Of a stretch of DNA of 64,000 nt, positions 56,732 through 59,951 are shown piece after piece. A program made the position numbers and the translations under genes. This stretch comes from Salinispira sp. GTDB lineage: Bacteria > Spirochaetota > Spirochaetia > DSM-27196 > Salinispiraceae. The stretch covers positions 96,001 through 160,000 of the forward strand of contig OZ271918.1 in the NCBI GenBank assembly GCA_965602015.1. Direction: 5' to 3'. The stretch's first letter is position 1; the number at the start of each line of letters is the position of its first letter. The notes under the pieces are model-generated. The model did not search any database. It was not told where the DNA came from and saw only the letters and a program-made list of their open reading frames with translations.

Positions 56732-57349
56732 ATGACATCAGACGATCGCAGCTCTGAGAAGAAGTACAAAAATCTGGGAGGATATTTTCTCATATCCGAA
56801 GCGGAGCTGCAGGACCCCAACTTCCAATTCACCGTCGTACTCATCGTTAATCATGACGATTCGGGAGCCCTCGGTCTGGTAATTAACAGGCCATCAAATA
56901 GCACTCTCGGAGATGTTTTTCCCGAGCAATTCTCAGAGCACAGCGCCTCGCATATACCGCTCTTCGTCGGAGGACCGGTACAGCAGGAGTACATATTCCT
57001 TGTCCAGCAAGGACTTCCGGAAAGCTACCGCAGTGACGGTGCAATCAGAATTAAGGACAACATATACTTCGAACCGGATGTCCGGCCCGTTCTAAACTTC
57101 ATAAGCGAACGGTGGGATGACCTCCCGTATCACCAACGACCGAGCTTGCGCTTTTTCGCAGGGTACTCCGGCTGGGCTCCGGAGCAGCTGGAGCAGGAGC
57201 TACATCTCAAAGCCTGGGTAACCCATCCATCAAGCGGAGATATTATCTTCAATGACAACCCGGAAGAGGGCTGGAGAAAAGCTCTCAAGAAAAAGGGCGG
57301 GATTTATTGGGTAATGGGTGAAACCGGCTCTAAACCGTCCTTGAATTGA
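56732..57349 (+). CDS. YqgE/AlgH (DUF179) family protein
   Basis: DPNF, GALGLVINRP, GGPV, GYSGW...QLEQE; ATG 56732 after GGAGG. Confidence 0.92.
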   Translation: MTSDDRSSEKKYKNLGGYFLISEAELQDPNFQFTVVLIVNHDDSGALGLVINRPSNSTLGDVFPEQFSEHSASHIPLFVGGPVQQEYIFLVQQGLPESYRSDGAIRIKDNIYFEPDVRPVLNFISERWDDLPYHQRPSLRFFAGYSGWAPEQLEQELHLKAWVTHPSSGDIIFNDNPEEGWRKALKKKGGIYWVMGETGSKPSLN

Positions 57350-58602
57350 AAGTGCCCCCAAAACAGCTGATCGAATCAACATAACTCTTTTGCCAGTAGT
57401 CTTCTATGACACGATTCCCGCTCATAGGAGATTACCATGGCATTTCACCCCCGTTTCTGTCCGTACTCGGACTGCTCTCAGCATCATCGCGACAAAGCAT
57501 CAAGCCGGTGCTGGTTTGTCCGAAACGGCCACTATCACTGCCGCCGCCTCGGTTCTTCCCAGCGCTATCGCTGTAAGCATTGCCGTCGCTACTTCTGCGA
57601 AAGCTCGTTTCACCTCGATTATCGCACACATCATCGCCTCGATTACCGGCGCATCTTTTCTTCGATCAATTCGGCCTCCGGTATCCGCGACATTGCCCGG
57701 GAGTTTTATGTCACCGACAAGGTCATTCTCAATCGGCTGAGCCGCCTGTCCCGTCAGGCGATCGCTGCCATGGCCGAGTTATTGAACGATCATACAATCG
57801 ATGAGGATAATGCCGTTGATGGGTTTGAAAGCTTTGTGTACAGCCAATACTGGCCGAACAACTTCACCCTCGCGGTGGGTTCCGACAGCCAGGTTGTCTA
57901 TGCGTGCGACTATGCGCAGATGCGGCGAAAAGGGCGGATGACTCCCGCACAAAAGCGCCGGCGCGATGAGCTCAATCGCCGGTATCCTATTGCAGGGGGA
58001 CAAATTGCGCGATCTTTCCGTGATGTGATAAACACCATTCTTCCCCGGTGGAAGGCCTATTCATCGAAGAAGCCATGCTATCTCTTGAGCGATGAAAAAC
58101 TCGAATACCGCCGTGAGCTGTTCGCTCATCGGGACTGGGCGGCGTTGGAAAATGCAGGGCGGGTGATCCATCACCGAACCTCATCGAGGGTGGTCAGGAC
58201 CACTGAAAACCCCCTGTTTCCGGTGAATTACCTGGACCGGGAGATACGAAAGGATCAATCCTGTCATGTCCGCCAGAGCGTGCAGTGGTCAAAATCGGTG
58301 AACAACAGCATGGAGCGGATGATGATTTACATCGCTTATCATAACCTGCTCAAGCCGTATCGGATAAACGGACGTAACGATATCAGCCATGGTGAGGTTG
58401 CGGGGTTTGACCGAAGGCGGGTACTCACGTTGGTAAAACGGATGTTTACACAGCGGGCCTTCGTTCATCATCTGGTGCTGGATATCAGTCAATGGAAGAC
58501 CTGGCATCGGATCTGGAAGACACCGGTGAGTGCGCTGAAGATCGATCTTCCAGATTATGCGGTGGCCTGAGGAGCGGGAAATCAGCTGTTTTGGGGGCAC
58601 TT
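57350..58602 (+). mobile_element. Insertion sequence (IS1/IS1595-related), about 1.25 kb
   Basis: Perfect 22-bp terminal inverted repeats AAGTGCCCCCAAAACAGCTGAT (57350-57371 and 58581-58602) enclosing one transposase ORF. Confidence 0.9.
57437..58570 (+). CDS. Transposase (zinc ribbon + HTH + DDE-like domain)
   Basis: CPYSDC...RNG...QRYRCKHC zinc ribbon, SGIRDIAREFYVT HTH, VDGFE / LSDEK / VNYLDREIR catalytic-like motifs; AGGAG RBS. Confidence 0.85.
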   Translation: MAFHPRFCPYSDCSQHHRDKASSRCWFVRNGHYHCRRLGSSQRYRCKHCRRYFCESSFHLDYRTHHRLDYRRIFSSINSASGIRDIAREFYVTDKVILNRLSRLSRQAIAAMAELLNDHTIDEDNAVDGFESFVYSQYWPNNFTLAVGSDSQVVYACDYAQMRRKGRMTPAQKRRRDELNRRYPIAGGQIARSFRDVINTILPRWKAYSSKKPCYLLSDEKLEYRRELFAHRDWAALENAGRVIHHRTSSRVVRTTENPLFPVNYLDREIRKDQSCHVRQSVQWSKSVNNSMERMMIYIAYHNLLKPYRINGRNDISHGEVAGFDRRRVLTLVKRMFTQRAFVHHLVLDISQWKTWHRIWKTPVSALKIDLPDYAVA

Positions 58603-58604
58603 CA

Positions 58605-58748
58605 TAAAAACCACCCTTGAAGAGGAGACTGCTTCAAGGGTGATTGGGGGAAGTCGCTGGAGGCTAGCGACATAACTTTTTTACACGCTATGGTTACCAT
58701 AGCGGCAGCTGGGCAAAAGGGGGATGCGGTGGAGGATGCCCATACTGC
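58605..58748 (-). ncRNA. Candidate sigma-54-dependent small RNA with anti-Shine-Dalgarno loops
   Basis: Four consecutive hairpins between a consensus -24/-12 promoter and a U-tailed terminator; no credible ORF. Confidence 0.7.
58606..58645 (-). terminator. Intrinsic terminator of the candidate sRNA
   Basis: 11-bp stem CACCCTTGAAG/CTTCAAGGGTG (58612-58642) followed by GTTTTT on the minus strand. Confidence 0.8.
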
Positions 58749-58758
58749 ACTTATATAA

Positions 58759-58774
58759 TGCAAAAGCCGTGCCA
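58759..58774 (-). promoter_or_regulatory. Sigma-54 (RpoN) -24/-12 promoter
   Basis: Minus strand reads TGGCACGGCTTTTGCA, a full match to TGGCAC-N5-TTGCW, in an AT-rich intergenic region. Confidence 0.82.
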
Positions 58775-58943
58775 TCTACAAATTTTAAGAATTTACATGA
58801 ATTAGGGTGTGTATGACGAGCTGAGCATGCTTCCGGATAGATAACGCTATGCAATTTGGATAACTGTATGCTAAAAACATTATATTTTGCATACCCGATG
58901 CTTCTTGTCTTTACGGTGCACAACTGCTACATTCTTCACCCCG

Positions 58944-59951
58944 ATGAGTAACCGACGTATTCTTCAATCAATAATCAACAGGCAGGACGCTGGTCGTACT
59001 CTTCTTGATTGGCTTGTTTCTCGTTTTCGGTATCTCGACGTAGAGCAATGGACTGCTGAGATTCGCGAGGGTCGTGTAAGGGTAAATGGTCGCCGGAGCG
59101 ATGGAGGTCATGAGCTTCAGTCTGGTGACTGTGTTATTTTCGAGCCTGAAGACCTTCATGAACCGGAAGTGAACAAGGATTACTCTTTTGTTTACCGAGA
59201 CGATGATTTTGCATTGATAAACAAGCCGGCTAATCTTCCCAGTCACCCCGGCGGTATTTATCGGGAGAACAGTCTCTGGTCGCTGCTTGTCGGGAAATAC
59301 CCCACTGCTACTTTGGTTAATCGTCTGGACCGGGAGACCAGCGGCATTATTCTCGTCGCCCTGAGCGATAAGGGACGTAAAGCTCTGGATATTCAGCTTG
59401 GCAATAGTGCGCTGGAGAAGGAGTACCTTGTGCTTGTTCACGGCGATACTCCTGGTCAGTTCCGGGCTGACGGCTGGATCAGCCACGATAATAAAAGCGA
59501 GATCCGGAAGAAGCGAAAGTTTTACCTGAGTTTTCCCGACGGCGCCAAGGCTCAATCCTGCAGCACCGGATTTTTCAAGGTGGCGGGTAACCGCGATCTT
59601 TCTCTTTTACGGGCAACCCTGGGCAGCGGCCGCACTCATCAAATTCGAGCGAGCTTGTTCTCCCTCGGATTTCCCGTGCTGGGTGATAAAATTTACGGGC
59701 TTGATGAATTGCTTTTTATTCGGCTTTCTGAGGGCAGGCTCGATGAGGATGATCTACGCACCTTGGTGTTGAGCCACCAGGCGCTGCATAGTGTGAAACT
59801 GACTATTTCTTTCAAATCACATTCCCCTATTAGGCCAGGGGAAAGTCTGGAGTTTTTTGCCCCCCTTCCTGCAGATTTCGCCGCTGTAGTTAATGAGCGT
59901 CTATCGACTGATTTGCATTCTCTCGACGGAGTTAAAGCGCTTTGGCAGTAA
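58944..59951 (+). CDS. RluA family pseudouridine synthase with S4 domain
   Basis: S4-like N-terminus, NKPANLPSHP, NRLDRETSG (catalytic Asp), GRTHQIR, GDKIYG; start set at ATG 58944. Confidence 0.93.
   Translation: MSNRRILQSIINRQDAGRTLLDWLVSRFRYLDVEQWTAEIREGRVRVNGRRSDGGHELQSGDCVIFEPEDLHEPEVNKDYSFVYRDDDFALINKPANLPSHPGGIYRENSLWSLLVGKYPTATLVNRLDRETSGIILVALSDKGRKALDIQLGNSALEKEYLVLVHGDTPGQFRADGWISHDNKSEIRKKRKFYLSFPDGAKAQSCSTGFFKVAGNRDLSLLRATLGSGRTHQIRASLFSLGFPVLGDKIYGLDELLFIRLSEGRLDEDDLRTLVLSHQALHSVKLTISFKSHSPIRPGESLEFFAPLPADFAAVVNERLSTDLHSLDGVKALWQ

Follow-up and report, generated by a model that had tools for sequence, protein, structure and literature searches.

A candidate sigma-54-dependent small RNA with anti-Shine-Dalgarno loops in Salinispira

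Does the interval between a yqgE-like and an rluA-like gene in the genome of a Salinispira sp. encode a regulatory RNA, and if so, what would switch it on and what would it act upon? An initial annotation of a 64,000-nt window (the whole stretch of DNA analysed here) had proposed that this interval carries a small RNA (sRNA) gene on the minus strand, driven by RpoN (sigma-54), an alternative sigma factor, and displaying loops complementary to ribosome-binding sites. We followed up this proposal in the complete 3.87-Mb genome that carries the window (G000) and in two congeneric genomes, G001 (83% complete) and G002 (complete). Coordinates without a genome prefix are positions in the window, and those preceded by G000:C1 are contig positions. 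The features of the locus are as follows:

56732-57349, plus strand: YqgE/AlgH-family gene (start inferred), the convergent neighbour past the insertion sequence
57351-58601, plus strand: IS1-like DDE transposase insertion sequence, flanking the sRNA gene and not part of it
58605-58748, minus strand: candidate sRNA gene, predicted length 144 nt
58606-58644, minus strand: intrinsic terminator, a hairpin with a CUCCU loop followed by a U tail
58653-58671, minus strand: hairpin 3 with CCUCC loop, conserved
58672-58685, minus strand: A-rich linker, single-stranded and holding one GUAAAAA motif (58684-58678), kept in G001
58686-58704, minus strand: hairpin 2, structure kept and sequence replaced in G001
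58705-58748, minus strand: hairpin 1, with a 21-nt C-rich loop containing CCUCC and CAUCCCCC motifs
58759-58774, minus strand: sigma-54 -24/-12 promoter sequence with the top matrix score, kept in G001
58847-58895, minus strand: upstream activating region, best site of the TATGCA-N3-TGCATA type at 58862-58848 with weaker partial sites further upstream
58944-59951, plus strand: RluA-family pseudouridine synthase gene (start inferred), the divergent neighbour

Architecture, promoter and conservation of the candidate RNA

The four hairpins, their loops and the U5 tail (58610-58606) are present where the initial annotation had placed them, and RNAfold returns the four-hairpin structure as both the minimum free energy and the centroid solution (-56.5 kcal/mol), with a fold z-score of -6.99 and 0 of 200 shuffles equally stable. 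The linker is unpaired with a probability of 0.94, and the terminator was not called by a simple scanner because its 9-nt loop exceeds the scanner's loop limit of 8. The conserved unpaired parts of the sRNA are C-rich and complementary to the Shine-Dalgarno sequence of G000, and the 16S rRNA 3' end of this genome bears a canonical anti-Shine-Dalgarno. A search of Rfam gave no match over the sRNA at E-values up to 5, and a covariance model found it to be single-copy in G000 with no paralogue.

The proposed RpoN promoter is likewise borne out on the minus strand at 58774-58759, with the -12 C at 58760 and a predicted +1 at 58748. The strict sigma-54 pattern has 11 matches in G000; five lie within a repeated palindromic element, five directly before open reading frames, and the sRNA promoter is the sole match that precedes neither. 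It also tops all intergenic sites of this genome (26.1 bits) when scored with a matrix trained on the promoters of relatives. G000 has one rpoN gene, and of the 12 matches listed for enhancer-binding proteins 8 are strong, which together with the promoter and an upstream enhancer that are both conserved in G001 supports the prediction of an RpoN- and enhancer-controlled sRNA gene. Four other sigma-54 promoters of G000 (G000:C1 2370323 (-), 1855752 (-), 577876 (+) and 3653923 (-)) precede genes that we take from their sequence to encode two sigma-factor-like and two small heat-shock-like proteins, an arrangement that resembles an RpoN-to-RpoS cascade; one sigma gene of genome G003 carries the enhancer as well (locus L406). 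The repeated intergenic palindrome (near G000:C1 3440700, 3445300, 3452100, 3456000 and 1738050) mimics a sigma-54 promoter on both strands, flanks unrelated small genes and looks like a cassette-type repeat.

BLAST searches in 61 genomes returned G001 as the one real match. Its homologue lies in the same yqgE-rluA gap, is about 160 nt long, folds with a z-score of -5.03 and retains promoter, loop 1 (22 nt invariant), A-rich linker, CCUCC loop and terminator, whereas the stems of hairpins 1 and 2 have diverged. The stem of hairpin 1 shows three two-sided changes among 8 pairs and that of hairpin 3 one among 6, while the terminator stem is identical at 11 of 11 pairs and followed by a U9 tail in G001. 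In the alignment of both RNAs, 58 of 58 cells are paired and 7 of 29 pairs are changed on both sides, compared to 36-50% paired in slid controls, though this covariation rests on two sequences from which the structure was itself derived, with an arbitrary alignment of hairpin 2. The upstream windows of ortholog pairs share on average 43% identity and just 14 of 423 have a common 22-mer, so conservation at the sRNA locus is above what is usual between these genomes. The expectation that promoter and loops are conserved in relatives thus held for G001 but across a narrow range, since a covariance model built from both sequences matches 2 of 99 genomes of the order, both of them its own inputs. 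A 17-mer of the loop, searched in 301 genomes with one mismatch allowed, matched only out of context at the 29 loci of other genomes that were viewed, and an all-species scan with a loose pattern gave no homologue among the matches listed (at least 120 stretches), which leaves room for one in distant genomes. A metagenome search with a 20-mer gave six matches, all unrelated, and a scan of viral sequences gave none.

As annotated, the RNA lies between yqgE and rluA, but the real gene order in G000 is yqgE, insertion sequence, RNA and rluA, and the insertion sequence had been missed. This 1.25-kb element abuts the U tail of the sRNA, is absent from the yqgE-rluA interval of G001 and occurs in G000 as 12 full-length copies of 95-100% identity. 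Its transposase has weak IS1/ISL3 profile scores below the cut-off and falls in atlas clusters of Spirochaetota proteins that appear spirochaete-specific and have no Pfam family. Furthermore, its 21-bp terminal repeat matches 81 places in G000, and 15 inward-facing pairs of these repeats, 140-150 bp apart, look like MITEs.

The enhancer, a candidate activator and an order-wide repeat RNA

The enhancer, which the initial annotation had likewise missed, lies about 88-107 bp upstream within a 49-bp ungapped block at offset -121 in both G000 and G001 that is identical at 31 of 49 positions, compared to 26 of 72 and 25 of 79 in the stretches on either side. A consensus from 68 loci reads TATGCA-N3-TGCATA, and the sRNA locus scores 15.6 in G000 and 17.6 in G001 with the corresponding matrix (family median 19.6 bits). 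The ten other sigma-54 promoters of G000 score between -2.1 and -11.0, and scores of at least 12 are reached by 0.07% of 3000 intergenic background windows. Sixteen sites in G000 score at least 13, six of them intergenic, and among these six the sRNA locus is the only one with a sigma-54 promoter. Combinations of the palindromic enhancer with a sigma-54 promoter were found in 25 of 99 genomes versus none with a reversed control, and those of the 3' half-site with such a promoter in 15 of 99 versus one. In a search of 4.8 Mb with a profile of the family's upstream region, the G001 locus came first (E 0.048), and that of G000 took seventh place (E 3). In G002, a genome without the sRNA, rluA is preceded by a weaker enhancer-like site (9.7), and because the site persists there the enhancer may serve rluA, too. 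Strong palindromes of the enhancer type also precede lipoprotein-like genes at G000:C1 724901, 2320910 and 2936973 without a sigma-54 promoter, and these could be repression sites or decayed promoters.

Most matches of enhancer plus promoter lie directly after orthologues of one REC-AAA-Fis protein, encoded in G000 at G000:C1:582586-584031, 430 kb from the sRNA, and further ones are found in front of large genes of surface-lipoprotein type or, in the case of G003, of a sigma factor gene. We infer that this protein is the activator of the sRNA because its orthologues, which turned up in 87 of 99 genomes surveyed from the order, precede the same enhancer and promoter order-wide. The recognition helix QSTLSR is common to the G000 protein and 16 of 20 orthologues, the remaining four differing by one residue. 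Counting against this activator, the assignment is by association, and the G000 protein has GSFTGA in place of GAFTGA, as seen in 3 of 29 loci examined.

The order-wide unit consists of enhancer and sigma-54 promoter after the activator gene, followed by a short RNA of tandem GUAAAAA repeats, and this circuit was seen in about 70 related genomes. Among 60 loci behind the activator chosen by the gene alone, regardless of any RNA, 50 have a sigma-54 promoter (47 strict promoters less one mis-call, plus three CGGCAC variants and one TGGTAT variant). In three loci the unit lies about 3.7 kb downstream of the activator, two have the enhancer with a variant promoter that was not counted, four have neither, and one is cut by a contig end. 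Repeat RNAs end in a terminator-like structure at 55 of 68 loci, with lengths of 73-234 nt and 1-5 repeats counted; the motif is unpaired at 0.73 versus 0.42 for the rest of the RNA, and the repeats are spaced by 12 nt in 73 of 121 intervals. No Rfam match above the gathering score was obtained in 30 loci, and a double-repeat pattern occurs in 16 of 44 genomes of the order versus 2 of 357 outside it, one of the two being a true member. A role of the repeats in DNA bending is unlikely given that their period is mostly 12, that they are strand-specific and located between +1 and terminator, and that they persist when the next gene is convergent. Two further features of these loci are of note. 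Enhancer and sigma-54 promoter of the same type also control large surface-lipoprotein-like genes (L046, L056, L308 and L309); in the two from genome G005 (L046 and L056), the A-rich repeats recur at the start of long leaders, which suggests feed-forward control. In family f5 (L539, L540, L301 and L302), the terminator of the repeat RNA is immediately preceded by a stretch that matches the anti-Shine-Dalgarno exactly or nearly so and is conserved in four genomes.

The sRNA shares the enhancer and promoter of this family and is located elsewhere than directly after the activator gene. Indeed, the G000 activator has no promoter behind it, and in family f1 the RNA was found behind the activator in none of the five genomes having one. 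We consider it likely that the sRNA and the repeat RNAs belong to the same regulon because their control region is common, although beyond one weak repeat no likeness between the RNA sequences themselves was detected.

Function of the RNA and alternative readings

That the sRNA gene is real, uncatalogued and transcribed seems to us highly probable from its sequence and conservation. With considerably more reserve, we favour a role as Hfq-independent, multi-target anti-Shine-Dalgarno repressor under control of the REC-AAA-Fis activator. Once switched on, the activator would make the sigma-54 promoter fire, and the exposed C-rich loops of the resulting sRNA would pair with the G-rich ribosome-binding sites of several mRNAs and block their translation without Hfq. 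Multi-target repression is favoured because C-rich unpaired parts in a genome in which no Hfq was found (G000) match the design of the cuckoo/alpha-r14 RNAs described below.

Our target searches, which covered 916 kb of the roughly 3.4 Mb of G001 with home-made gene starts and regardless of accessibility, fell short of showing the proposed multi-target repression. Loops 3 and 4 beat most shuffles against ribosome-binding regions (2 and 1 of 40 shuffles, respectively, came up to their median), as any anti-Shine-Dalgarno sequence would pair with such regions better than shuffles do, but for loop 1 against conserved ribosome-binding regions 29 of 40 shuffles were as good. Plain anti-Shine-Dalgarno pairing therefore fails to explain the 22-nt invariance of loop 1, which needs a specific RNA or protein partner. 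No standout conserved target emerged in G000 or among the 423 ortholog pairs from those 916 kb of G001. Loop 1 has its longest perfect complements, of 16 and 14 nt, inside coding regions, presumably of a dihydrolipoamide succinyltransferase-like and an HPr-like protein as judged from their sequence; of the G001 sites within one mismatch, none fell in these two genes, and both complements are probably due to chance, the same 14 bases encoding the common peptide DAVE. In G000 and G001, though not in G002, GGAGGAUG is present at the ribosome-binding site of flagellin, yet as a target flagellin ranks 107th of 3217 and 25 genes share that 8-mer. Pairing with the spoVG leader is poor, and a role in nitrogen control was dropped given that the amtB-like and gltB-like promoters have no enhancer. 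The flagellin leaders of G000, G001 and G002 (L260-L266) form hairpins with GGA(U) loops, a motif typical of CsrA sites.

It is possible, though clearly less probable than base-pairing repression, that the sRNA is real and controlled in the same way but mainly binds protein, as a relocated and remodelled member of the repeat family that has kept one A-rich site and offers the invariant C-rich loop as ligand. This would fit the equal type of enhancer and promoter, the one GUAAAAA-like motif that is single-stranded in both genomes, the absence of RNA beside the activator in all five f1 genomes examined, the invariance of loop 1 despite no standout target, and the presence of CsrA and SpoVG in G000. 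However, an RNA-only profile of 49 family members has no match to the sRNA among 36 at E 50 or less, and the linker motif scores low (11.4 in G000 and 7.4 in G001, the family's 5th percentile being 9.5). A single such motif can be seen in 6.6% of 144-nt windows taken at random from intergenic DNA; 9 of 55 family members likewise have one. Sponges normally have many sites. The family shows no enrichment of C-rich anti-Shine-Dalgarno words (10 of 55 versus 7.8 in shuffles), the words that it has in common with loop 1 are not significant, and GUAAAAA before G000 ribosome-binding sites is not enriched either (15 versus 11.8 expected). RRM proteins were considered as the partner; 88 of 99 genomes surveyed from the order have them, none were found in G000, G001, G002 and G006, and an RRM protein binds an sRNA family in Bacteroides (PMC11697453). 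Their distribution reflects one loss event, and G003 and G005 have RRM proteins yet no adjacent RNA, leaving them as a lead only. A tentative evolutionary reading, which we hold to be rather unlikely as a whole, would have the order run an undescribed LuxO/Qrr- or CbrB/CrcZ-like circuit in which one activator drives a decoy RNA of 12-nt-period GUAAAAA repeats to sequester an RNA-binding protein that is neither Hfq nor CsrA, with this genus having swapped or evolved the GUAAAAA protein sponge into an anti-Shine-Dalgarno base-pairing repressor at a new locus under the same enhancer; as part of it, the genus would be one without the RRM proteins common in the order.

The remaining explanations are less probable still. 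The locus could be an antisense or insulator element splitting a yqgE-rluA operon, with hairpins that stop or destabilise plus-strand read-through and an enhancer mainly for rluA, given that the two genes are 116 nt apart in G002 and directly adjacent in G006 (neither with the RNA), that the enhancer-like site persists before rluA in G002, that hairpin 3 and linker read on the plus strand score as a weak terminator, and that plus-strand loops would display GGA motifs to CsrA. We regard this as improbable, however, since it is the minus strand that keeps the promoter with its distance to hairpin 1 as well as the U tail, the plus-strand U run begins 5 nt past the stem, the insertion sequence already splits yqgE from the sRNA in G000, and a local role has no need of an invariant 22-nt loop. 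A chance or decayed, untranscribed arrangement, as the presence in 2 of 99 genomes and the insertion sequence against the U tail might suggest, is very improbable given that enhancer, promoter, loops and terminator have been selectively retained while the stems and flanks diverged. Hardly credible at all is a gene for a short peptide: a start codon lies 5-7 nt from the predicted 5' end in the same frame of both copies (AUG in G000, GUG in G001), and the frames it opens, 20 and 40 codons long, have 7 residues in common, but this codon is buried in a stem with no room for a ribosome-binding site, the shared residues stem from invariant DNA without any synonymous change, and lengths and C-termini are unrelated.

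The predicted activator, enhancer, 5' end and seed loops make this sRNA gene directly testable, and the repeat RNA motif of the related circuit points to an RNA-binding partner. If true, it would show how a signalling activator is coupled to post-transcriptional control in bacteria without Hfq and possibly also how the RNA output of a circuit can change. Its importance is lessened by its having two known members, mechanism classes that are already known and a function that is predicted only.

Relation to known regulatory RNAs

In literature on free-living spirochaetes, we found no report of an sRNA driven by sigma-54 and an enhancer, though supplementary motif tables could hold one. CsrB/RsmZ sponges present multiple GGA motifs in loops on the transcribed strand, whereas the GGA-rich loops of this locus would lie opposite the promoter strand. 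The staphylococcal C-rich-loop RNAs RsaE and RNAIII act independently of Hfq and, like the sRNA, expose unpaired C-rich motifs. The sRNA has no sequence match to these staphylococcal RNAs (for the group see PMC2790875), another type of promoter and a host from another phylum. An RpoN-dependent anti-Shine-Dalgarno RNA has a precedent in Campylobacter CJnc230/FlmE, but that RNA is processed from the flgE mRNA, consists of two stem-loops with a single-stranded seed and is not a stand-alone enhancer-driven gene (PMC11187230).

The closest likeness in form is to the cuckoo/alpha-r14 RNAs of Alphaproteobacteria (CcsR, NfeR1), which have several adjacent hairpins with variable stems and conserved anti-Shine-Dalgarno loops through which NfeR1 represses translation (PMC4615179, PMC10746234). 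In the sRNA, this pattern of variable stems and conserved C-rich loops was found on two sequences. The defining feature of the group is CCUCCUCCC in each of 2-4 adjacent hairpin loops (PMC4615179), while the loops of the sRNA differ from each other, contain CCUCC or CUCCU only and none has the CCUCCUCCC 9-mer. The sRNA further differs by its A-rich linker, sigma-54 promoter, lack of an Rfam match and phylum; the NfeR1 promoter is stated to lack the signature of sigma-54 (PMC10746234).

As to control, crcZ is positioned beside cbrB. The CbrB- and sigma-54-dependent RNAs CrcZ and CrcY, with several single-stranded A-rich motifs that bind Hfq, are the closest analogue of the order-wide repeat RNA (PMC6296734, PMC6292655). 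Unlike them, the repeat RNA has a GUAAAAA motif of mostly 12-nt period, another enhancer and no Rfam match, and the sRNA has one A-rich motif, no Rfam match and a genome in which no Hfq was found. Vibrio Qrr are likewise sigma-54-dependent sRNAs with a palindromic enhancer and a REC-AAA-HTH activator, and the LuxO box TTGCA-W3-TGCAA (PMC11443567) has a core nearly identical to that of the TATGCA-N3-TGCATA enhancer with different flanking bases. However, the sRNA differs from Qrr in sequence and structure with no Qrr Rfam match, its candidate activator scores 294 bits against the LuxO model's cut-off of 800, short of a LuxO orthologue, and Qrr need the Hfq that G000 appears to lack. Most likely, then, the sRNA works like a cuckoo- or RsaE-type RNA and is controlled like Qrr or CrcZ, yet is a member of none of these families.
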